DNA of 64,000 nucleotides from Hyaloraphidium curvatum SAG 235-1 (Eukaryota; Fungi; Monoblepharomycota). Positions within the stretch are counted from its first letter, which is position 1. The number at the start of each line of letters is the position of its first letter. Of this stretch, positions 1 to 57,457 are shown one piece after another. The stretch lies in contig JAIVFI010000017.1 in NCBI GenBank assembly GCA_025558095.1, forward strand, positions 558,001 to 622,000, written 5' to 3'. The notes beneath the pieces are model-generated. The model was given only the letters and a program-made list of their open reading frames with translations. It was not told the DNA's origin and searched no databases. The translations under genes and the position numbers were made by a program.

Positions 1-627
1 GGCGGGCGCATGGTGGCTTTGCTTTGACTAGGGACCGGAGATCTGTGAGGTGGATTCAACAGACGGATGCGAACGATGAAGGCGACGCAGTTCCGATTCT
101 ACGACTTAGCCACCGCAATTTATCCCACGACGAAAACAGACGCATCACGTCGGCCGGCCCATCCCAGCAGACAGCGGACCGATGTCCGCTCAGGTGTTCT
201 CCGTGCACCCCCCAGTATCGCAACGCTGCCCAGACGGGCACGCTGTGGCCGGTTGCGCGGTTGATCAGCTTGCCACAACGTGCACACGATTCGCCTGCGG
301 AAACGAACAAACGCACCATTCCCGCACCGTCCGCAGTTCTGGTCGCTCCAGTCGGTGTCGACACAGGACCCGGAGCAGCATGTTTTCGATCCCACCGCAG
401 GCTGCCCGGGAGGTGGGGGGGGGGGGCGCGGAGGGGGTATAGGAGGATTGTCAGTTGCCGGCCGATGCGACCCCAGGGCGTGGAACATCGTACAACTACT
501 GCAGCCTCCACAGTTGTTTGCATCGTCCTGAGTGTTGACGCAGACGCCAGCGCCGTCTCCGCATGTGTCCGGCAGCACCGGGGGGCAGTGACACACGCCG
601 CCCGAGCAGGTCGAGCCGTCCGGGCAC

Positions 628-758
628 TGTCAGGACGGGGCGCGGGGGACCCGTAAAGACCTGTGTTGACGACGTTGAGGAGTCACTACACAGCACTGCG
701 CCTAGTCTTCCCTCGCCGGGGACCACCGTCCCCCTTGCCCCGACGCCGGCGCGTTACA
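628..758 (-). repeat. 3' LTR (131 bp)
   Basis: tgtcaggacg...gcgttaca, identical to 5973-6103. Confidence 0.97.
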
Positions 759-2422
759 TCACCCCCCCCCAACCGCCGCGTAGGACCCGGCTTGTCCGGA
801 AAGCGGCGGTGAAAGTCGGCAACGGCGTCGGGGGCGTGCTGGAGGTGCTCCCACGGTTCCCATGAGCGCTCCGATGGAGGAAAGTCCTTCCAGTCGACCA
901 AGTACTGCAAGTGATTGCGGAATCGGCGGGAATCCAGGATCTGGTTAACCTCGTACTCGGGTTCGCCGTCAATGATGTCCGGGGGTGGAGTCTCTGCGAC
1001 GCGGCCGGGAAAATCGGCGGTGTCCGAGGGAGTATAGGGTTCGAGAAGCGAGACGTGAAAAACGTCATGAATGCCCATCGTGGGCGGAAGATCCAATCGA
1101 AACGCAACGGGATTGATCTGCTCCTTAATGCGGTAGGGCCCGAGGTAGCGAACGTCGAGCTTGCGAGACGGTCGACGCGTACGAATATTGCGCGCCGATA
1201 GCCAAGCACGGTCGCCGACGCGGAAAACGGGAGCATCCTCACGACTGACGTCTGCGGAGTCTTTGTAGCGTTCCTGGGCCCGCTGGAGGTTCTCGCGAAG
1301 GACGTCGTGGAGGGCGCGAAGCTCCCGGATGCGTTCCTCGGCGGCGGGAACGCGCGGCGCGTCGGGTGCTAAAAAGTCGGCTCGCGGGTCGTAACCGTAG
1401 TTGGCGCGGAAAGGCGACATGCCAATGCTGGCGTGCACCGAGTTGTTGTACGCGAACTCGGCGAGCGGGAGCTGATTGAACCAGTCGTCCTGGGCGTAAT
1501 TGACGTAGGTCCGGAGGTACTGCTCCAAAATCTGATTGATGCGCTCCGTCTGGCCGTCCGACTCGGGGTGCGCGGCCGAGGAGCGGTAAAGCTTGATGTC
1601 CATGAGTCCAAGAAGCCTTTCCCAGAATTTGGCGATGAATTGCGGTCCGCGGTCGCTGACGATGTCGAAGGGGAAGCCGTGGAGGCGGAATATTTCGCGA
1701 AGGAAGAGCCGAGCGGTGTCGTCGGCGGAGAAGTCCTTCCGCGCGCCAGCAAAATGAGCCTGCTTGGTCGACCGATCGGCCACGACGAGCACGGCGTCGA
1801 ATCCCTCGGACTGGGGCAGGTCGGTGACGAAGTCTATACTGATCGAACGCCAAGGTCCGTCCGGGATTGGAAGTGGCTGGAGAAGGCCGTGCGGGGCATG
1901 GCGCGGGGCCTTGGTTCGCGTGCACGTCTCGCAGCTCCGAATGTAGCGGGCGACGGTGTCCCAAACACGCGGCCACCAAAAATCTCGCAATATGAGCTCC
2001 ACAGTCTTGCGAATTCCGAAGTGGCCGGCAGTAACGGCATCGTGACGGGTTCGGAGAAGCTCCGTCCGAGACTTGCCGACCGGCACGAAGATGAGACCGT
2101 CGCGGTAGAGAATGCCATCGAGAAGATGGAAACGAGAAACGGACGCGTCGTGAGCCTCCAGAAGAGCGATAATGCGACGGGCGAATGGGTCCTTGGCCGT
2201 ATCGCGACGGATCATGTCCAGGAAATCCAACGAAGTCGCGTGGAGCGCGGCGACCAGGTGCGGCCCGAGGAGCGTGACGCGCTGTTGCGTAGAGACATCG
2301 TCGAAGTTGCCCGGAACGTAGTCGGAGCGGCGAGAAAGCGCGTCGGCGACGACTTGATCGGTGCCGGGTCGATGCTTCAAAACAAAGTCGTAGCCCGCGA
2401 GGGTCATGGCCTCATGGCCCAT
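686..2422 (-). CDS. Integrase with C-terminal chromodomain (out of frame with upstream pol)
   Basis: HHCC zinc motif (H..GHFG..CETC), SIDFV..SDRG..DGQTER core, GPY motif, chromodomain EYEVNQILDSR..YLVDWKD..SWEP. The ORF runs into the 3' LTR. Confidence 0.95.
   Translation of the reverse strand: MGHEAMTLAGYDFVLKHRPGTDQVVADALSRRSDYVPGNFDDVSTQQRVTLLGPHLVAALHATSLDFLDMIRRDTAKDPFARRIIALLEAHDASVSRFHLLDGILYRDGLIFVPVGKSRTELLRTRHDAVTAGHFGIRKTVELILRDFWWPRVWDTVARYIRSCETCTRTKAPRHAPHGLLQPLPIPDGPWRSISIDFVTDLPQSEGFDAVLVVADRSTKQAHFAGARKDFSADDTARLFLREIFRLHGFPFDIVSDRGPQFIAKFWERLLGLMDIKLYRSSAAHPESDGQTERINQILEQYLRTYVNYAQDDWFNQLPLAEFAYNNSVHASIGMSPFRANYGYDPRADFLAPDAPRVPAAEERIRELRALHDVLRENLQRAQERYKDSADVSREDAPVFRVGDRAWLSARNIRTRRPSRKLDVRYLGPYRIKEQINPVAFRLDLPPTMGIHDVFHVSLLEPYTPSDTADFPGRVAETPPPDIIDGEPEYEVNQILDSRRFRNHLQYLVDWKDFPPSERSWEPWEHLQHAPDAVADFHRRFPDKPGPTRRLGGGDVTRRRRGKGDGGPRRGKTRRSAV
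761..774 (-). other. Polypurine tract
   Basis: G-run on the minus strand (ggttgggggggggt) immediately before the 3' LTR. Confidence 0.8.
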
Positions 2423-5400
2423 CGAGCCTGACGGCGATTGAGCATCTGCTGCTTCATGAAGTACTCCAGGTTCTTGTGGTCCGTGAAGACGTCGACTTTA
2501 TGCGGGCTACCCTCGAGGTATCGCCGCCACGCCTTGAACGCGTCGACAACTGCGAGTAGCTCCTTGTCGTAGATCGGGTAGTTGATCTCCGCCGGCTGGA
2601 ACTTCCGGGAATGAAACGCCACGGGATGCATAAGCCCGTCGTTGGGGGCGGGCTGCGACAGCACGGCTCCGAGGGCGAAGTCGGAAGCATCTGCCTCAAC
2701 TGTGTACGGAACGGCTGGATCGGCGTTACGCAGGAACGGAGCCGAAGTGAAAGCGGATTTGAGCGCATCGAAGGCTGCGCGAGCTTCCGGCGTGAAACGG
2801 AACGGATCGCCCGGCTTGAGCTTAGTGAGGTCCGTGAGCGGAAGTGTGATCTGCGCGTAGTCCTTGATGAAGCAGCGGTAGAAGTTGGCAAAGCCGAGGA
2901 AGCTTTGGAGCTGGCGAAGGGTCGCAGGCTCGGGCCATGAGGTGATGGACTCGACCTTGGAGGGGTCCATGATGACCTTGCCGTCGCCCACGATGAACCC
3001 GGCGTACTCGACGGTCGTAACATCGAACGAACACTTGGAGAGCTTCGCGTACAGGTGGTTGTCCCGGAGGCGCTGCAGAACCTGGCGCACATGCCCCGCG
3101 TGATCGGCTTCGTTCTCTGAGAAGATCAAGATGTCGTCGAGGTAGATCGCGACGAAGATGTCGAGTACGTCATGGAAGATGCTGTGCATGAAGCGCTGGA
3201 AGATGGCCGGCGCATTCATGAGGCCCATGGGCATGACGAGGTACTCGAACTGGCCGTAGCGGGTGCGGAAAGCCGTCTTCCACTCGTCTCCTTCGCAGAC
3301 GCGAATCTGACGGTAGGCTTCGCGGAGATCCAGCTTGGTGAAGATCTTGGCACGGGAGAGGCGGTCCAGAAGGTCGGAAATGAGCGGGATCGGGTAGCGG
3401 TCTCGCTTCGTGATCCGGTTGAGACCGCGGTAATCCTCGCAGACGCGAAGCCCGCCATCCTTCTTCTTTGCAAAGATGACTGGAACCCCGCTCGGAGAAT
3501 CCGAAGGGCGGAGACGCCCCGATGCGGAAAGCTCTTCGATGTGCTTCCGGAGTGCCTCGGATTCGACTTCGGAGAGGCCGTGGAGACGTCCAGAAGGAGG
3601 GACTGCCCCTTCTTCGAGTTCGATTGCGCAATCGAAACCGGGACGATGCGGCGGCAGTGACGATGCAGGCTTGTCCGGGTCGAAGACGTCCGCGAAGTCG
3701 GCGTACTGCGATGGGACCGTGGGCTCGGCGGCGGCCGCGCTTGCAGCGCGCGCGGCGGGGTCGGAGACCATGGCGACGAAGATCTGTGCGTCCTTGCGCT
3801 TGCGACGCATCTCGGCGACAAACTGGCGCGCCGAGAGATTAGCGATCTTCACCTTAGGCGGCGGAGGCGGAGGTACTTCCGGAGGCGCGCCCCGACCGGT
3901 CCCATCGGCCGGGGTTGGCCTCGGCGGTTGTTCGTCGACCCCGCGGCCCAAGGGGACGGCCTGCGGAGGTCTGCCTGCGTCGCCCGATCCCATGGAAGCC
4001 GAAAAAGAAGCCGTGTGTGGGTATTCGGACTCCGTGATGTCCTCGAGGATGGTCCGGTCGCTGGCCTGGCTGGAGGCGGGGTCAGCAGCTGGGAGACATC
4101 CACCGGCAGAGACGGATACGTCCACCGGGGCCGCCCGGCTGGCGCCTTCAGCCGGGCTTGTCTTTGGCGGTTCCTGATCCGCCGCCGGAGCCTTAGGCGC
4201 GCTCAACGGCGGGGAAACTCCCGGTGCGAACGGGCGAGGGATCCGCAGGGATCGACGGGACCAATCGAGCGCCGCGTTCACGAACTCGAAGTACGAGAGT
4301 CCGAGAACGACCGGAATTGACGCGCTGATGATGTTGAAGCTGACTCCGACGGTAATGCCATCGGCTGTCAGTGCGACGGGCTCCGTCTCCTGGGTGACGT
4401 CGCCCGACGAAATAGGCCGCCCGTCCACCACGTCGAGCCCGAAAGGCGTGGAGCGCTGCAAGCACGAGTATCCAACGCAGCGCGCGAAAGCCTCATCCAT
4501 GAAGCAGGCGTCGGCGCCGGAGTCCACGAGTGCGTCCACGATCCGAAGCCGGCCGTCCGGAAGCACGATGCGCACGGGAATGACGAAGGAAGGAACCGGG
4601 TCGGACCGGAGCAGAGGAAATGGCGGCCGCCCGGAAGACGCCGCCAAGCAAGGGGCACGGGAAAACTGAAGACTTGTATTGGCATCGCCAGCGTCGGAGG
4701 TGCCCCGGAATCCGAGCTGGCGTTTCAAAAAGACGACGATGCAGACTTGGCGGGGCAAAAGGCCTTGACGTGACCGGGCTGACCACAGTAAATGCAGAGC
4801 CCCTCGCGAAGGCGGCGCTGGCGCTCCTCCGGCGTCAGCTTGGCGCGCGACCCTGAGGACGCCGAGCCTGAAGCCCCGCCCGGCTGGCCAGATGCAGACG
4901 CGGAGCCCAGCACCATCGGCACGGGGCCGGAAGCACTTGCGGAAGGAGCTGCCGGAGAGACATGCGATCCGATGGGCACCGACTGCATCGCTCCGGGGTA
5001 GGGATACCCGGTCGCGGCTCCGAGCTTTGCGCAGCGCAGCTTGCTGCTCGGAGAGGCGAACTTGAGCAGCAAATGCGATCTTCTTCGCTTCCTGGTACGT
5101 GCTGGGCTTCGAATGCTGGCCCATCTGGTTCACGATCTCCGCGGAGAGGCCAGCCAGGAACATATCCATGAACGTGGCATCACTGTAGCCCTCGACATCC
5201 GGCTTCAGGCTTTCAAATTCGACTGCGTATTCGGCCAGATGCCCGGGCTTCTGGACGAGTGCATGGAGCGCATTGACGGCGGAAGTGTGTCGAAGTGGCA
5301 TCTGAAAGGTAGAGAGAAACTCCTCGCGAAGCGAGATCCACGAGGGCGCAATCGTCCCGGAGCTGCTCTGCTGGGCAGCAAACCAGCGGAGCGCATCGCC

Positions 5401-5907
5401 CTTGAGAAGCAGACTGAAGAACGCGATCTTTTGGGCGTCCGAGGCAAGCTCCGGCTTGAGCTCGAGCGCGTTGTCGACCTGCATCATGAAGTAACGGGTG
5501 CGTGCGTGATCGGTCCCGTCGAACTTGTCCGGGGTAGGCACGTTGATCGGTTTCGCGGTTGGGGCAGCAGCGGCGTGCTGGGGCAGGAACCCCATGCGCG
5601 CGACAGAGCCGACAAACGCGTCCGTGAGCGCAGCGGCGGACACCGAAATCGGAGCAGACAGAGGAGCGTGCTGCGCGACGTGGGTTGCTTGGGAAGCGCG
5701 GTAGGTGGCGACTTGGGCACGGATCGGGAGCGCGATGAACTCGGGCTGAGCGTCGCCGAGGGCGTCCAAGAAGCTGACGAAAGCAGCACGCTCCTGCGGC
5801 TCGAGGGTATCAAGGAAAACCCTTTCGCGCTCGATAAGGACTTCGACGGGAGTCTGGGGGTCCGGGGTCGCGGAGAGGAGATCGCGGAGAGCGTCGGCGC
5901 CAGCCAT
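2404..5907 (-). CDS. Gag-protease-reverse transcriptase-RNase H polyprotein (Gag zinc knuckle is in an alternate frame, 4725-5025)
   Basis: PDKFDG gag motif; ALVDSGA aspartic protease; YLDD RT; [24 protein letters not shown] RNase [15 protein letters not shown] is in ORF 4725-5072. Confidence 0.93.
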
Positions 5908-5959
5908 GCTGCACCGAGGGCGAGGTCACGGGGAACGGGAAACGTGGATTCAGGGTTGG

Positions 5960-5970
5960 AACGTCGTCAA
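5960..5970 (-). other. Self-priming primer binding site (11 nt)
   Basis: Minus-strand TTGACGACGTT lies 2 nt inside the 5' LTR and is perfectly complementary to minus-strand AACGTCGTCAA within the LTR (6011-6021). Confidence 0.85.
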
Positions 5971-5972
5971 AC

Positions 5973-6103
5973 TGTCAGGACGGGGCGCGGGGGACCCGTA
6001 AAGACCTGTGTTGACGACGTTGAGGAGTCACTACACAGCACTGCGCCTAGTCTTCCCTCGCCGGGGACCACCGTCCCCCTTGCCCCGACGCCGGCGCGTT
6101 ACA
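5973..6103 (-). repeat. 5' LTR (131 bp)
   Basis: Identical to 628-758. Confidence 0.97.
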
Positions 6104-6270
6104 CCGGGCATTCTGGCGGGAAATTGGGTGCCGTCAATCCCCGATCAGCCTTCTGCGGTAGCGAAGCGGCCTACGATGGTCGCAGTAGCCGCAGTGATTC
6201 ATGTTGTTCGTCGTGTTGACGCACCCCCTGTTGCAGCACGACAGGCTGTCGGCGCAAACTACGTCACAGT

Positions 6271-6943
6271 TGCGATAGTGGGATAGTTGAGGCCATGGCC
6301 TGCTAGGACCGCCCCTGGCGTTCCCATCTGGTGCTCTCTCTCCCTGCTACTGTCCCGGCTGCTTTAACATGCTGTCCAAGCATCTTGACTAGCATTTGCT
6401 CACCTATTTGCTAAGCAAATGCTAGTGTATATACATATACGTTCTTCTCTTTAAAGCTTCATTTTCTAAAGCATCTGCTCTCCATCTCCTTACCTTTTTT
6501 ATTCTTTAATATTTTGTATACACTTATACACTCTATACACCACTTTATTCCCAGAAAAACTTTTTCGGGAGTTGGGGGCCCCGCAATTCTTGCCCCTTTC
6601 ACAATCACTGATTCTACCCCCATACCTGTGTATAACGTGTATATTTGTATACAGCTTATCACATGCTTCGGAACTCCTATCCGATGCTCATTCTCATGTA
6701 TCTCTGTGTAATGCATCCCTAGCTCCTGTGTATATACACCTTTGTCTTCATATTCGTGCTTCATTCCCCAACTCATTTGTCCCGGACCTTTACCTGTGTA
6801 TAACCTGTATACCTGTCTACAGCTCCTTATACGTTTATACATTGTATAGGCTACTTCCCCTCATACCCGTGCTTCCACTTCCTGCTCCCTCATCCCCCTC
6901 GGTGAACCCGCTCCCCTTCCCCCGACTCCCGCCCCGCCACCCC
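6271..6943 (+). repeat. Left terminal inverted repeat (673 bp)
   Basis: Reverse complement of 10343-11015 without net indels; about 3 substitutions seen by eye. Confidence 0.95.
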
Positions 6944-7045
6944 TAGTCCCCTTCTTGATTCATGATCTCATATTGTCTTCATATTCATACTTTGCTTGGT
7001 AAGTCTCCCTTGTATACACTTATACACTCTATACCCTACTTTGGA

Positions 7046-8662
7046 TCAAAAGTATGTCGTTTTCATGCTCCTCACTGTCTTATCACTACCTTGGGGATAT
7101 CTCATTGTGCTTTCCATCACATCCACGTATGGATTCCCTGAGTATGCTTTCTTGAATGCCTTTATGAAGTCTCGGAGCCCATGCTCTTTTGTTATGCCCC
7201 ACACTTTACTTGCACTTTTTAAATCATCTTGGCAAAGCTGATGCTTCAATTTAACCATTGGCTCCGTGGACTCTGCTAGATGCTCCATGACTCCCGGAAC
7301 TGCCACCAGACCATTCACCACTTCATCAGCAAACTTCTCGATCAGCGGCCTTTGCCCTTTCTGAATCTCTTTCTTCTCCGCTGTCTGCGGCATTTTGGTC
7401 GCATGAAACCCACTCAAGTCCCTCCTGAATAGCATTTCCACATAGTGTCTTGCTCCCCCTTGATCATAGTATGCTTTGTAGAGATTGTTGAAATACTATG
7501 TGTCTCCGATCTTGTCACTTGATACTCTCACCACAAAATACCTCCGGTCTCCAAGAGGGATTCTCACACAGTCATCATTGTTGCTCAGGAATATGAACCT
7601 TTGATAGTCCTTTATCATGGTTGCATCCAGTTTCTTCTTTTCCTGGCTCACATAGCTCTCGGTGATTAGAGCTTTCATCTTGTTGTCATCTCCTGTTAGC
7701 TTTTTCCCATTCCCAGATGATGGTGTCTCTTCCAAGATAGTCAGCAGTTTCCCTTCATCATTGTTGAACTGTCCTGTCAATTGAGTCCTAATGCTGATTC
7801 CTTCGATCTTTCTTCCCATCTGATACCGCCCTGAGCATCCTATGATCATCTCCATCAAGTAGTTGGCTATGGTTGACTTTCCACATCCTTGATCTCCTAT
7901 AAATACTGCTGCAATGCCTGACTTGGGATTCCCCCTCACCATATCTGCTTGGAAATCCAAGAAGAACTCATACAGATCTCTTCTTCCTGAAAATAGCACA
8001 TTCAGCTGGTGATCCAGTAAGAGTTGGATCTTTGATACATCCAGTTGCTCTCCTGGTTGCAATCTCTTTGCTTTGAGTCCTCTGAATCTATTCAGCACCA
8101 TGCAGCCTTCCTCATCCTCGAAATCATAAGGTGGCTCATTGTAGTTTGGATTAAATGCAACTGTCTCGAACTCCAACCGGTATCTGCTGTCTGTCCATAT
8201 ATCAAATAGCTTCACTTGTCGGGGTTTTCTGCCCTCTGGAATCTTGAAGTTGTATGGCTTTAAATCCATCATCAGAGTCTCCTTGCTCCCTCCCATAGTC
8301 CATGCCAATCCTGGCCTCTTTCTGAATGCAAACCTGTCCTCTGATCTAACACGAGCTATGTAAAAGTTCAAGCAGCTGACTAGAATGGTCTGGTCCTCAT
8401 CTGAAATGTCATTGTTGTACTTGGCTTTGATCACTCGTTTGTCCATGGGATCATCTAGACTTGGGATAAAGCTCCTCAGTTTTGCCCATTCCTCCGACTC
8501 ATTTGATGGCATTTCATTGCTTAGTCTTGAGTCATTGGTCCTCAGTGTTACCAATCCTGATCTTATTGAGAGCTCATCTGAGGTATGGGCATCTGATTCT
8601 GCCCCCTTCAGAGGCTTCAAATCAATCTCCATGGTTGTTACTTGCACTTCGTCGGGTTCCAT
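7046..8662 (-). pseudogene. Superfamily-3 helicase (D5/NrS-1/DUF5906-like) with one in-frame TAG at 7496-7498
   Basis: Walker A GDQGCGKS, Walker B LTILEE, motif C FIFLSNN, Arg finger GDRRYFVV, and an upstream W..R..F.P..N.F.G block. The frame continues after the stop (GDT*YFNNLY..RRDLSGFHATKMPQT). Confidence 0.85.
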
Positions 8663-8737
8663 CCTTTCCTTCCTCACACCCCCTGCTCCTTTTATGTCTG
8701 ATTGCTCCTTTACACTCTATCTGCTCTCTTTTCGATT

Positions 8738-9103
8738 CTAAACTTCATCTATCTCTGATATTCCGCTTCTCAAGATACTCTTCCAAGTCGGTGCTTCGCG
8801 AAGTAGTTTCAACACGTTGGCCCTTGCAAGATCCGAGTCCAGAATCGATGATGGGTACTGAATCCACAAATAGACATGGTGGTCCATGCCCACAAATGTG
8901 CTCACATATTCCATATCCCTCTCCCTCATTTTGTCTATCACATATTCCAAAGTTGGCAATTCCGCGTTCTCCAGGAAATCGCGAAGACCGCTTATCATGT
9001 TTCGCCGTCCCTCTGCCGTTGTCATGATGCTTTTCACCATCTTCAGCTGCTCTTCCTGCGATAACCCTTTCAAGTTTGATGGCATCACTTGCAGACTCTC
9101 CAT
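8738..9103 (-). CDS. Hypothetical protein of the TIR element (ORF open to 9469; start uncertain)
   Basis: Open frame with helical, protein-like composition in AT-rich DNA; no motif recognised. Confidence 0.5.
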   Translation of the reverse strand: MESLQVMPSNLKGLSQEEQLKMVKSIMTTAEGRRNMISGLRDFLENAELPTLEYVIDKMRERDMEYVSTFVGMDHHVYLWIQYPSSILDSDLARANVLKLLREAPTWKSILRSGISEIDEV

Positions 9104-9227
9104 GTTCTGCGATCTTTTTGCTATTTCTAAGAGACTCTTGTTGCTCCTATTCCCCGGGATTTTCAGCGAGTTCTTCAGCCATTTCTTTCCAATCTCATGT
9201 GTGCTGACCCAGTCCGATACTAGAGTA

Positions 9228-10193
9228 ATGACATGCTCCTTCACCACACCTTCATCATTCCAGAACTTGAAATTCTGTAAACAACACCCCGTTGGGAACA
9301 ATTGCCCCACCGCTATCAGTTCTGATGCTTCGTCCAAGTCTGTTGATGTTTCAAATAGTGTATCAAAGCGTGCAAACGACTTGCCATTGGTGGTGTATGA
9401 CAAGATCATGGAACATGCGGATCCAAGAAGCATATATACGTTGTCAAGGGTGAGTTTGAATGCAAACAATGCTTTCCATCACATGAGAGACAAAGTGTAT
9501 GATAGAAAGTTGGAGAACATTTTAAACACGTTTGACCCAGGAAGGTACTATAGTGTGGATCCAACATCTCAATCGGGGCAACGTTTGCTGATTGCTCTGA
9601 ATGACTACATTAGAAGGGGATACAAGACAGAAAAGGCACATGGTTATTTGAGCCATGTATTGGAACAGTTGCGGAATTTCAGAGACGTTGTAAGCTCAAG
9701 GCGTTCAGAGACAGATAGCACCTACCTGAGTTCAGTGAAGAGTCACCGTGAAATAGCCACGGAGCCGAGCCGACAGTTCATAAGAATGTGGGCAAAGGAC
9801 TTGGTGCAGGCATGTTTTAGCCGGACGGACTTTAAGTCAATCCATATGTTTGGCGGCCAATTGGAGTTCATAGCAAAGAATGCAGATGTATTTGGAGCAT
9901 GGGCAAGGATTGTGATAGGTGGAGTTCTTGGTGGCAAGATCGACTTTGTGAATGATAGTTTTGGACAGGGAAACCTAGCATCTACAGAAGAAGTAAAAGA
10001 GATTGTCATATTCCTAGATAGGTTTGACGGTTTCACGGATCTTTTCAAGAAGGTAGTGGAAACGAATGGGGAGCAAGATCTAAGAGTGAGGAACCGAGTG
10101 TTCAGAAATCTATCAGGTGCCTATGATCCACAGGGACTAGTAAGAGCGATTCGCAAGGGATTGGGAGCACTAGGACATGTGTGGCAGGCATAG
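9228..10193 (+). CDS. Hypothetical protein with an N-terminal F-box-like motif (start uncertain)
   Basis: Long ORF in AT-rich DNA. LPLVVYDKIMEHADPRSIYTLSRVS (from 9381) resembles the F-box consensus. Confidence 0.6.
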   Translation: MTCSFTTPSSFQNLKFCKQHPVGNNCPTAISSDASSKSVDVSNSVSKRANDLPLVVYDKIMEHADPRSIYTLSRVSLNANNAFHHMRDKVYDRKLENILNTFDPGRYYSVDPTSQSGQRLLIALNDYIRRGYKTEKAHGYLSHVLEQLRNFRDVVSSRRSETDSTYLSSVKSHREIATEPSRQFIRMWAKDLVQACFSRTDFKSIHMFGGQLEFIAKNADVFGAWARIVIGGVLGGKIDFVNDSFGQGNLASTEEVKEIVIFLDRFDGFTDLFKKVVETNGEQDLRVRNRVFRNLSGAYDPQGLVRAIRKGLGALGHVWQA

Positions 10194-10342
10194 CCGATGA
10201 AGCAGCGAAAGTTCTTACGTCGATGTCATTCACATGCAGATCTTGGAGGACCTGATCCAGTGTTAGCCGTTATGCCAATGCGACCAAGTGTATAAGTAAC
10301 AAGCATTGAAAGCAGCCAAAAAGGGACCAAGAACGGGACTTG

Positions 10343-11015
10343 GGGGTGGCGGGGCGGGAGTCGGGGGAAGGGGAGCGGGTTCACCGAGGGGGATGAGGGA
10401 GCGGGAAGTGGAAGCACGGGTATGAGGGGAAGTAGCCTATACAATGTATAAACGTATAAGGAGCTGTAGACAGGTATACAGGTTATACACAGGTAAAGGT
10501 CCGGGACAAATGAGTTGGGGAATGAAGCACGAATATGAAGACAAAGGTGTATATACACAGGAGCTAGGGATGCATTACACAGAGATGCATGAGAATGAGC
10601 ATCGGATAGGAGTTCCGAAGCATGTGATAAGCTGTATACAAATATACACGTTATACACAGGTATGGGGGTAGAATCAGTGATTGTGAAAGGGGCAAGAAT
10701 TGCGGGGCCCCCAACTCCCGAAAAAGTTTTTCTGGGAATAAAGTGGTGTATAGAGTGTATAAGTGTATACAAAATATTAAAGAATAAAAAAGGTAAGGAG
10801 ATGGAGAGCAGATGCTTTAGAAAATGAAGCTTTAAAGAGAAGAACGTATATGTATATACACTAGCATTTGCTTAGCAAATAGGTGAGCAAATGCTAGTCA
10901 AGATGCTTGGACAGCATGTTAAAGCAGCCGGGACAGTAGCAGGGAGAGAGAGCACCAGATGGGAACGCCAGGGGCGGTCCTAGCAGGCCATGGCCTCAAC
11001 TATCGCACTATCGCA
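10343..11015 (-). repeat. Right terminal inverted repeat (673 bp)
   Basis: Reverse complement of 6271-6943. Confidence 0.95.
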
Positions 11016-11917
11016 ACAGTTCCCACAATTCCTGTAGTCGGTGTTGGGGTTGGAGCACCCTGTTGCGCAGAGAGCCGGCTTCTCGATCGGGCAGTAGCAG
11101 TAGCCGGACTGGCAGTAAGCGTCGGCATCTTGTGCGGTGCAAGCTGCCGGGCGGGATCAGCGGGACGCCAGCGAGGGTGGCAGGGCGCAGAGACAATTTG
11201 CGCACGAGCCGCAATGTTCGTTGTTGCTGTCGAGATCGAAGCAGGATCCGGAGCAGCACTCCGGGGTGGTGCCGCCACACGTTGTCGAGCAGGTCCCGCA
11301 GTTGTTCCCGTCCGTGGTCTTGTTGACGCAGTTCCCGGAGCACACCTCCATGCCGGGTCCCGTGCACACGTCGTAGCTCCGGTAGATCAGGCGGTGGTCG
11401 TCGGGCGCGATGCTGACGCAGGCGACGTGCCCTCGGGCGTTGTTGGGGAACCCGAACTCGCTGCATGGGGGCGGCGGCGGGACCCGGTTCAGCCTCGTCT
11501 TAAAATGCATAGGTCAACGCTACCAGAAGTCCAAGGGATCGCAGTCCGCGCAGCTGCGGGCGAAGATGTGGGGGACTCGGGTGGGTCTTGGCCCCCCGCC
11601 CGGGGTCAGTCGGGCCGCAGCGCGCCGGCGGGACGGGACCCACGACGCAGCGACGACCGAGACCGACGCAAACGCGAGCAGGACGGCGAGCAATGGCCCC
11701 ATTTGTGCGGCCGGCGGTGGTGTCCCCAATGGAGCGGTGTCGTCCCCGGTTCAGCCATGCTCGTCCCGCACCACGGCCTCCGGGGCCGTCCCTCAAAATA
11801 ATGGCACGGCCATCACGCCTGTTGCGAAGAAAGAAACCCGGGAGAACGCGTCACCGTTCTGTCCTATTCGTGCCCGCGATCCCGGCGGGCCGTCCAGGAA
11901 CCCGGGCCGCCACTCCC

Positions 11918-14924: not shown

Positions 14925-15680
14925 TCGGCCAGTTTTGGTGATCAGGTAGCACCTGTACACTGGATTTTCGACGCACGTGAATGCTCCGGTCCGAAATCGA
15001 TGGATGGGCGCTTGCTCCACATCGCCCGGGGATGCATCGCAGGGTTCGGCATAATAGGTGCACTTCCCGTCGGGGTGCCAACTCCGTCGAGTTTTGTCAT
15101 CTGACAGCCCACGGAGCGTCAATTCCCGACGCACACAAATCTGCTGGTCCGAATTTGCCGGATGGGCACTGGCTCCACATCCGCCCTGGGATGCAGGGGT
15201 GCACGAAGCCGGCATGCTAGCAGCCCTGGTACCCTTTCCGTCAGTGTTGATGATCAGGAAGGGCCCAGACGGTCGATTCCCCACGCAGTTGATTGTTCTG
15301 ATCAGGTGTTTCCGGACGAGACCTCGCTCCACATACCCTGGGGATGTCGGGGTCCACGAAGCAGGTGCCCTGCCGCCGGCCCCTTATTCCGTCAGTTCTG
15401 GCGATCAGGCACGGCCCGAACTTTCAATTCCCGACGCAGTTCAATGTCCTAGTCCGAAATTGCTGGGTGGGCGCTTGCTCCACATTCACCAGGTTCATGC
15501 CATCGATGGGGAGGGTATAGGGCATCCCGGTGGGGCTGCCATCAGTTCTGGCGATCAGTGGAAGGCAGGGCCGGACCGTCGATTCCCGACACAGTTGAAT
15601 ATAGTGCGCCAAAATTGGCACAGGAGTGCTGGCTCCACATCCGCCCGGGGGATGCTGGGGTCCGCGAAGCAGACCTCTCA
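14925..15680. repeat. Degenerate tandem array, about 5 copies of a ~155-bp unit
   Basis: Anchor CTCCACAT at 15015, 15173, 15327, 15478 and 15633; recurring GATCAG and ATTCCCGAC.CAGTT blocks. Confidence 0.8.
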
Positions 15681-42293: not shown

Positions 42294-42456
42294 TTTCGCG
42301 GTTCGAGAGCCGAGTTCGACGCGCGAAAGGCGGGCTAGGGGGACGGAGTTTGTGGGTGAGCCCTCGCCACCCATGCGTTGGGCGCAGTGGCGAAGGTCGC
42401 CAAAAAGTCAATCCCGTGCCTCTCACCCAATCCAGGCCACGTACATCGCATGCAGA

Positions 42457-44074
42457 TCATAGCAACGCACCGGGCGGCGCCGAAACAGTCCTGGCCAGCC
42501 TCCTCCCCGGCCGCTCCACAGCCCGTCCCCCCTCCCATGCCACCCTCCCGTTCACAAGCACCATCGCGATCCCCTCGCTGGCCCGCACCGGGTCCTCGAA
42601 CGTCGCCGCGTCCCCCACCGTCTCCGGATCCAGCAGCACCAGGTCCGCGTGGCAGCCCTCGCGCAGCTCCCCGCGCCCTTCGAACCCGAACGTGCGCGCC
42701 GGCAGGCCCGTCATCTTGTGCACGGCTTCCTCCAGGGTGAACAGCCGGCGGTCGCGCGCGTAGTGCCCCAGCACGCGCGGGAAGCTGCCCCACAGCCGCG
42801 GGTGCGGCCGCGGGGAGTGCATCCCGTCGGACCCGATCATGCTCCGTGGGAAGGCGAGCACGCGGCGCACGTCGTCCTCGGACATGTCGTGGTACACGGC
42901 GATCCCGGGCGCGAGTTTCTCGGCGGCCTGGGCAAAGGTGAGGGAGCGGAAATCCGGGTGCGAGGTGACGAGGTGCGAGACCAGCTTGCCGCTGAGCTCC
43001 GGGAACGGCTTGGAGCGGATGATGCGGATCTCCTCCGAGATGGCGGCGAACTCGGGGAGGAAGATGGAGGAGCTCGCCGTGTAGGGGTACACGTCGAGCG
43101 ACACCGGGGCGTGCGGCGGGGCGTTGGCCATGGCTTCGGCGATAAGCTCGAGGGTCTCGCGCGTGCGGCCGTAGTTCGTGGTGCCAGCGCATCTTGGCGG
43201 CGGATTGCAAAGGTAAGGAGGCATGCCGTGAAAACGCATCGGGGTTGCAGCCGTACTTATGGTGGGAGATGACGAGGGGCAATCCGGCCGTGCGGCCAAT
43301 CAGGATAGCCTCCTTGACCGCGTCGATCACCTTGTCCGCCTCGTCGCGCATGTGGGTCGCGTACAGCCCACCGTGCGCTGCCGCGACCTTTGCCAGCTCG
43401 ACGATCTCGGCCGTGGGCGACGCGCGCTGCCCGGGGTATTCGAGGCCGGTCGAGTAACCGAGCGCGCCCTCGCGCATGGCTTCGGCGAGGAGCTCCTTCA
43501 TCCGCGAGATTTCGGCGGGGGTAGCGGGGCGCGAGCGGTCCGGCACGGCGGCGCAGCGCAGGGCGAGGTGACCGATGAGCAGCGCGTAGTTGGTCTGCGG
43601 GGGCTTCGACTCGAGCTTGGCAAAGTAGGTCGACGCCAGGGGGAACGGGCCGTGCGGGCTGGGACCCAAGCCGTACTCGGCTGCACATCGGGGACAATGG
43701 GCAGGTTCAATTAAATCGCCGACTCCCGCAGCCGGAGATCGACACCCACGCGGCGAGGCCGGGTCCGCGAGCGTGTCCGGCGCGGCGCTCAGCCCGCAGT
43801 TGCCCGCCACCACGGTTGTGACGCCTTGCGAGACCTTTGCGTCCATCGCGCGCTCGGTGAGCAGGGCGAAGTCGTCGTGCGTGTGCGCATCGATGAAGCC
43901 GGGGCACAGCACGCGCCCGCCGCCGTCGACCTCGCGGTCGGCGTCGCCCGCGACGGAGTCGGCGATGCGTGCGACGCGTCCGTCGGCGACCGCGACGTCG
44001 ACCGGGCCGCGGCGCGGCGCCCCCGTGCCGTCGATCACGACGACGCGCCGGAAGACGATCGAGAACTGCGGCAT
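42457..44074 (-). CDS. N-acyl-D-amino-acid deacylase (amidohydrolase family)
   Basis: IDGTG, PGFIDAHTHDD, GVTTVVAGNCG, THMRDE, ISHHK, IGSDG, PHPRLWGSFPR, KMTGLPA; two introns. Confidence 0.93.
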
Positions 44075-57140: not shown

Positions 57141-57457
57141 GTTCACCCTGGAGGAAGCGGTGCACAAGATGACGGGCCTGCCGGCGCGCACGTTCGGGTT
57201 CGAAGGGCGCGGGGAGCTACGCGAGGGCTGCCACGCGGACCTGGTGCTGCTGGATCCGGAGACGGTGGGGGACGCGGCGACGTTCGAAGACCCGGTGCGG
57301 GCCAGCGAGGGGATCGCGATGGTGCTTGTGAACGGGAAGGTGGCATGGGAGGGGGGAAGGGCGGTGGAGCGGGCGGGGCGGCGGCTGGCCAGGACCGCGC
57401 CGGCGCCGCCCGGTGCGCTACTGTGATCTCATGCGGTGTACGTGGCTGCATTGGGTA
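57141..57457 (+). pseudogene. Inverted partial duplicate of the D-aminoacylase 3' end
   Basis: Near-identical to the reverse complement of ~42426-42742 (FTLEEAVHKMTGLPA...PGALL* plus 3' flank). Confidence 0.92.

Follow-up and report, generated by a model that had tools for sequence, protein, structure and literature searches.

A helicase-bearing insertion with long terminal inverted repeats in Hyaloraphidium curvatum, a candidate deletion derivative of a Polinton-like element

A 64,000-nt stretch of the genome of Hyaloraphidium curvatum SAG 235-1 (GenBank assembly GCA_025558095.1, contig JAIVFI010000017.1, positions 558,001 to 622,000; hereafter, the window) contains a 4,745-bp insertion at 6271-11015, in which long terminal inverted repeats (TIRs) enclose a superfamily 3 (SF3) helicase gene and two further open reading frames, ORF2 and ORF3. 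On balance, this element probably arose by internal deletion from a larger Polinton-like (mavirus-type) element of zoosporic fungi; it would be non-autonomous and decaying, having been integrated by the rve integrase of a helper. A literature search, whose coverage did not extend to Repbase and most subscription journals, yielded no description of such an element type.

Insertion site, helicase gene and composition

The element starts with TG, ends with CA and is flanked by two copies (6266-6270 and 11016-11020) of the 5-bp target-site duplication (TSD) ACAGT. Its left TIR (6271-6957, plus strand) and right TIR (10328-11015, minus strand) aligned without gaps over 673 nt with 3 mismatches and, when gaps were allowed, over 687/688 nt with 5 mismatches and 1 gap. 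The insertion splits a host STIG1-like Cys-rich gene (6131-11510, minus strand), whose upstream part gave a Pfam Stig1 match (E 4e-8) and which likely has a short intron near 11150-11200. After removal in silico of the element and one TSD copy, the minus-strand Cys-rich frame continued uninterrupted across the empty site. An assembly artefact as source of the insertion was rejected in view of the TSD and this continuous host frame. The two TIRs are 99% identical, and the disruption of the host exon was probably recent. A first-pass annotation, based on the sequence alone, had described a clean insertion with TG..CA ends and an ACAGT duplication, as well as 673 bp of near-identical TIR; the boundaries and the restored host frame bore out the former, and the gapped alignment extended the latter.

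The right terminus (11000-11015) consists of a perfect tandem pair of an 8-mer, with one change in the second unit of its left counterpart (6271-6286), and a 10-nt palindrome comes after this terminal pair. The first 300 nt showed a DNA folding z score of -4.3, and the left TIR contains a perfect 13-bp hairpin (6388-6426) and many GTATA words. Each TIR also holds a 127-codon open reading frame (6459-6842, minus strand; 10444-10827, plus strand), which is probably non-coding (best family match E 0.1).

As indicated by Pfam and homology, the minus strand at 7046-8662 encodes a stand-alone SF3 helicase of the DUF5906/NrS-1-helicase type (538 codons). It matched PF19263 (DUF5906; E 7e-17), the nearest solved structure was the NrS-1 helicase (6k9e, E 1e-7), and stretches that we take to be Walker A (GDQGCGKS), Walker B (ILEE), motif C (FLSN) and the DRR motif were all present. 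An in-frame TAG was found at 7498-7496 (codon 389). Since the alignment with the metagenome-record protein P0002 (53% identity) runs gap-free past this codon and reaches near the TGA at 7048, the sequence reads as one 538-codon gene broken by a single nonsense codon; the same colinearity ruled out an intron spanning the TAG. Neutral decay at the divergence between the TIRs would give at least one such nonsense codon with a P of 0.17-0.45.

Searches used the minus-strand frame 9478-7046 (811 codons, with three TAGs as its only internal stops), read through its stops with X. A word search with this frame gave 11 matches among 7869 candidates, and a HMMER search gave 10,920 matches at E ≤ 0.001, the best 150 of which underlie the statements on homologs. 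The four closest helicases among the matches listed (P0002, P0013, P0016 and P0017; 38-52% identity) had -35 to +8 extra N-terminal residues and are therefore stand-alone, a status that rests on gene calls on contigs of 1.5-2.7 kb. More than 150 extra N-terminal residues were present in 110 of the 163 aligned proteins, a count that includes the read-through query and in which some short rows are perhaps fragments. Three trees of the helicase region (75, 25 and 18 rows, chosen from 159 usable) joined the element with P0002, P0016 and P0017, with P0013 and P0024 in those trees that contained them, and with the H. curvatum protein KAI9027905.1. The helicase phylogeny placed the element in a clade of metagenomic stand-alone helicases; support for the clade with KAI9027905.1 was 98/95 and 99/99 in the careful trees, on a long branch whose placement is unsure.

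Organism names were attached to six of the 20 top matches looked up, and all six (two from Phlyctochytrium and one each from Powellomyces, Spizellomyces, Fimicolochytrium and Hyaloraphidium) belong to zoosporic fungi; one more distant helicase match came from a bacterial metagenome-assembled genome. Zoosporic-fungal SF3 replicases (KAI9027905.1, KAI9091430.1, TPX53761.1, XP_016605250.1 and XP_052927548.1) were about 30-34% identical to the element in the helicase and carry 280-830 extra N-terminal residues, unlike the element helicase. KAI9027905.1 showed two weak AEP-like N-terminal stretches (pairwise E 5e-5 against P0022), and PolA-like N-termini, seen by eye in chytrid relatives, were not confirmed by PDB or PHROG searches. 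A phage origin is unlikely, since the eight records listed, among 189 that matched, were 24-28% identical. Long SF3 replicases were seen in spizellomycetalean chytrids (the P0035 cluster; P0019, P0021, P0028 and P0029), with three records on different contigs of Phlyctochytrium arcticum.

The foreign composition noted at first pass was also evident, with a GC content of 44.6% in the core against 66% in the host and a CpG observed/expected ratio of 0.47 against 1.10. For the ribosomal protein L4 of this GC-rich host, the top matches among solved structures were fungal, and the relatives of the helicase point to a zoosporic fungus. In the helicase region (7046-8716) this ratio fell to 0.29, which suggests past methylation in another context; repeat-induced point mutation was ruled out by TpA/ApT ratios of 0.46-0.53 in the core. 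GTATA occurred 44 times in the element and 11 times in the remaining window. A 12-nt element motif (at most 2 mismatches) recurs 16, 20 and 92 nt past the three stops and has one copy in each TIR; 59,255 host bases contained none. In 500 Markov simulations of the core, three copies appeared in 2 and two copies in 15, the motif having been picked post hoc. The copy starting 16 nt past the helicase stop lies in a 33-nt copy (7010-7042, minus strand; 94%) of TIR positions 6514-6546, likely a 3'-end or expression signal. The second (8705-8718, minus strand) lies past the ORF2 stop and about 45 nt ahead of the helicase ATG, and the third (10285-10296, plus strand) past the ORF3 stop. An Rfam search gave no matches at E ≤ 0.1. 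The motif and GTATA tie the TIRs and the genes together into a unit that has signals of its own, as would fit a larger parent and a satellite alike.

Accessory genes, enzyme searches and neighboring features

ORF2 (8738-9433, minus strand) showed 46% identity over 179 aa to the C-terminal half of the metagenomic protein P0018, aligning from nt 9337 onward to residues 164-338 of its 415 aa. It is likely 5'-truncated, judging from the missing counterpart of the first 163 residues of P0018, its sole homolog. An ORF2/P0018 profile recovered P0018 alone among 7996 scored candidates, with atlas hits below 0.8. The N-terminus of P0018 appeared F-box-like by eye, with no Pfam family assigned to the protein. 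AlphaFold models of ORF2 and P0018 were mostly helical and of low confidence (pLDDT 46), and Foldseek gave no matches to them at E ≤ 0.001. ORF2 is not considered a primase, PolA or HUH domain, because its homolog exists as a protein of its own and full-length replicase profiles matched the helicase region only.

ORF3 (9369-10193, plus strand) resembles the other two genes in codon-position bias and has a weak N-terminal F-box match at 9378-9488 (E 0.0044; 17.3 bits, under the 20.5 cut-off). No in-frame ATG stands directly ahead of this F-box; the nearest upstream is at 9228, and all upstream in-frame ATGs lie within the ORF2 homologous region, on the opposite strand, where the 5' extension of ORF3 has an antisense-like composition. 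Homologs of ORF3 were absent among 1462 candidates (atlas hits below 0.9), and neither ORF2 nor ORF3 had a paralog within the window. The first-pass description of three intronless open reading frames thus held for the SF3 helicase family but not for intactness, with a TAG in the helicase and an apparent 5' incompleteness of ORF2 and ORF3. Its hypothetical frame has a homolog, although alignable only to the C-terminal half of P0018, and its F-box-like frame does match an F-box, below threshold and with no usable start codon.

ORF2 and ORF3 diverge from a 40-nt interval (9338-9377) between the ORF2 homology and the ORF3 F-box, each directed toward a TIR, with no room for two promoters. Because two apparently 5'-incomplete genes abut head-to-head, we infer that this interval is the junction of an internal deletion. 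Since ORF3 does not match P0018, the two frames are not halves of a single F-box gene separated by an inversion. It is possible instead that ORF3 lost a single start codon and that ORF2 is naturally short.

Pfam matches to rve, DDE, polymerase and capsid families were absent at E ≤ 0.05 from all six read-through frames of the element, in a scan that did detect the rve domain of the adjoining Ty3 element. This control supported the first-pass statement that the element has no transposase. An open reading frame encoding a DDE transposase, which according to the first-pass annotation would make the insertion an ordinary non-autonomous derivative, was looked for and none was found. Among features by which Polintons/Mavericks are recognized, the element has the TIR (687 bp) and the TSD (5 bp); it contains no rve integrase gene and no pPolB gene, three other open reading frames filling its coding space. 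It shares with group 1 of the pMVRE elements the DUF5906 SF3 helicase (PF19263), and no polymerase, including the mavirus-clade pPolB of that group, was found in it. Double jelly-roll major capsid, penton and A32-like ATPase proteins gave no Pfam or PHROG match in the element, and the Gypsy-like DDE transposase of Ginger1/Ginger2 was likewise not found there.

The STIG1-like locus was struck twice, by the helicase element and by a young Ty3/gypsy chromovirus (626-6103, minus strand) with identical 133-nt long terminal repeats (LTRs), 167 nt to the left of the element. Its gag-pol frame runs for 1167 codons until a stop near 2404, with integrase and chromodomain in another frame (a frameshift). 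In its flanks (620-627 and 6104-6110), a 6-bp duplication is found only when 2 extra nt are allowed beside one LTR, as if one end had integrated unprocessed. Elsewhere in the window, a 289-nt inverted repeat (42454-42742 and 57141-57429; 94%) represents a duplication of the 3' portion of an amidohydrolase-like gene rather than a TIR pair. Five repeats of about 155 nt (14925-15650) have minus-strand translations that by eye resemble leucine-rich-repeat exons with short introns between them.

Origin of the element

In the favored course of events, a linear dsDNA parent would have held genes for integrase, polymerase and perhaps capsid at its center; their loss in a central deletion at about 9340-9375 would have brought together a left arm with TIR, helicase and the 3' half of ORF2 and a right arm with F-box ORF3 and TIR. 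Linear DNA is inserted by an rve integrase through its CA ends at a staggered cut, whose repair duplicates the target. The retained ends would still have been substrates of such an enzyme, their CA ends being joined to host DNA cut 5 bp apart, and gap repair at the staggered cut would have duplicated ACAGT. The helicase would formerly have served a separately encoded polymerase as its hexameric unwinding partner. A deletion before insertion would have produced a mobile short family and a deletion after insertion a single remnant; the present copy would have inserted recently and would now be decaying.

Several reported features bear on this reading. TSDs of mavirus and MPE elements measure 5-6 bp (PMC8547959), and Polinton-like viruses (PLVs), which are known in zoosporic fungi (PMC7805220), have TIRs of hundreds of bp and TSDs tied to rve (PMC12220804). 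DUF5906 is confined to mavirus-related group 1, in whose pMVREs it is the domain most often paired with pPolB; the group takes in a fungal lineage that lacks a capsid (PMC13215967). In low-GC endogenous mavirus-like elements (EMALEs), a short helicase occurs together with pPolB and rve, and three truncated EMALEs, out of 33 EMALEs in all, still had TIRs (PMC8547959). The deletion-derivative option raised at first pass is consistent with the abutting, apparently 5'-incomplete genes, the helicase stop and the EMALE precedent, although no parent was found in the window or in the viral contigs scanned. Its suggestions of rve integration in trans and of Polinton-like or virophage kinship agree with the element's termini, target duplication and type of helicase, but scans of viral, metagenome and genome contigs placed no relative in a PLV or virophage.

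This last result weighs against the deletion-derivative origin, as do several others. The window has no copy of the terminal 17-mer beyond the two at the ends of this element, and the element terminus was also absent from the viral contigs scanned. The junction depends on one ORF2 homolog, in-frame ATGs are available to ORF2 at 9433 and 9409, and the helicase TAG could be an assembly error, since assembly-made false stops occur in EMALEs (PMC8547959). The best-supported named neighbor of the helicase, on its long branch, is an AEP-like fusion, not a pPolB-type partner. Spizellomyces SPPG_07597 is not among the eight SPPG matches in the PLV supplement, six of which fall in SPPG_00918-00930 and one of which is SPPG_03309 (PMC7805220); the Spizellomyces SF3 replicase, outside the locus numbers of the described PLV, possibly represents another undescribed mobile family.

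A more tentative explanation is that the element is a genuine minimal satellite, a linear TIR-ended replicon with a stand-alone SF3 helicase as its sole core gene and an SF3 counterpart of transpovirons. Its copying might then depend on the polymerase and transcription machinery of a helper, either a PLV or a giant virus of zoosporic fungi (Mycodnaviridae), with occasional integration by the helper's rve, a scheme that we consider possible but rather doubtful. Equally speculative is a role of the F-box-like genes in retuning host ubiquitination, and it seems somewhat unlikely that the element is the first member of a family of SF3-helicase satellites of about 5 kb to which the four metagenome-record helicases are related. 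Stand-alone helicases of 507-526 aa do recur in metagenome records, in a supported clade with the element, but their contigs of 1.5-2.7 kb show no architecture. The element-specific 12-nt motif behind all three stops and in both TIRs, lacking in host bases, would also suit a satellite; it was chosen post hoc, however, and a deletion derivative would inherit it. Giant viruses infect zoosporic fungi, with PLV-like integrases in five isolates (PMC13533422), and repeat-bracketed replicase modules without integrase have been reported (bioRxiv 10.64898/2026.10.13.758929). Against a satellite stand the two accessory genes, which seem 5'-incomplete and abut, and the stop in the helicase. The deletion-derivative and satellite readings overlap, because a deletion that preceded spread would make the short form a satellite-like family.

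Gene fragments are typical cargo of non-autonomous cut-and-paste DNA transposons, and such an origin (Ginger2/TDD-like or another DDE type, mobilized by its own family's transposase, with a captured viral helicase and F-box fragments) is unlikely. The 5-bp TSDs of TDD-4/5 and the initial TG of Ginger ends agree with it, but the Ginger TIRs listed measure 40-297 bp and start with TGTNR (PMC2836005), as opposed to 687 bp and TGCGA here. The single foreign composition of the interior and the motif common to the TIRs are unlike host-captured cargo, and ORF2 and ORF3 have no paralog in the window. Opportunistic insertion of a linear DNA by a Ty3/gypsy integrase, for example that of the chromovirus 167 bp away, appears very improbable. 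LTR elements typically have TG..CA ends and make 5-bp TSDs, and in the chromovirus the LTRs are identical and the integrase frame, containing rve and a chromodomain, is open. However, its ends have just TG/CA in common with the TIR and its flanks carry a different, 6-bp duplication; moreover, LTR integrases act on their own cDNA inside particles. Hardly credible is a recoding of TAG as an amino acid, by which ORF2, spacer and helicase would form one 795-aa replicase, as the three TAGs of the 811-codon frame might suggest. The ORF2 homolog is a separate, non-helicase protein ending near the ORF2 stop, and close helicases begin near the ATG at 8662. In addition, the internal TAG falls at a variable site, aligned with D, D and T; the usage of CAG and GAG is normal; and one TAG belongs to the intergenic motif.

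Even if only a remnant, the element is the trace of a lineage of DNA elements, hitherto undescribed, that integrate in zoosporic fungi, with a helicase from a clade that has no characterized member. The TIR could serve directly as a probe for the autonomous parent, and surveys keyed on capsid or polymerase would by design overlook such an element. Should it belong to a multi-copy short family, it would provide an SF3 parallel to transpovirons and a handle on parasites of fungal giant viruses.

Comparison with known systems

Polintons/Mavericks and PLVs, including the Spizellomyces punctatus PLV, resemble the element in combining TIRs with an rve-type TSD. SF3 helicase replicases are common, and chytrid genomes harbor PLVs (bioRxiv 10.64898/2026.06.19.733378; PMC12220804; PMC7805220). 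PLVs differ in size (14-40 kb) and in their major and minor capsid proteins and ATPase, none of which the element has, and its helicase is not fused to PolA or AEP. With the mavirus-related elements (EMALEs and group-1 pMVREs, including those of Glomeromycota that lack capsid genes), the element shares, in architecture and helicase family, long TIRs, a TSD of 3-6 bp, a GC contrast with the host and a short stand-alone DUF5906/SF3 helicase; truncated, TIR-flanked copies exist among these elements. The element differs in lacking pPolB, rve and capsid and, at 4.7 kb, is shorter than all group-1 pMVRE entries consulted (smallest about 7 kb; PMC13215967).

Transpovirons are similarly linear, TIR-ended, capsid-less and helicase-centered, at about 7 kb, and derive from PLVs by gene loss; their helicase, however, is of superfamily 1 and fused to a pPolB-like domain, and they occur with mimiviruses (PMC5499653), whereas the element has an SF3 helicase and lies in a fungal nuclear gene. 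Ginger2/TDD transposons share TG..CA ends and, in TDD-4/5, the 5-bp TSD (PMC2836005), but the element has no transposase, a TIR more than twice the longest listed, ends other than TGTNR and a helicase as cargo. Although it fails the defining genes of Polintons, PLVs, virophages, transpovirons and Gingers, the element works like Polinton-like/mavirus-type integrating DNA.

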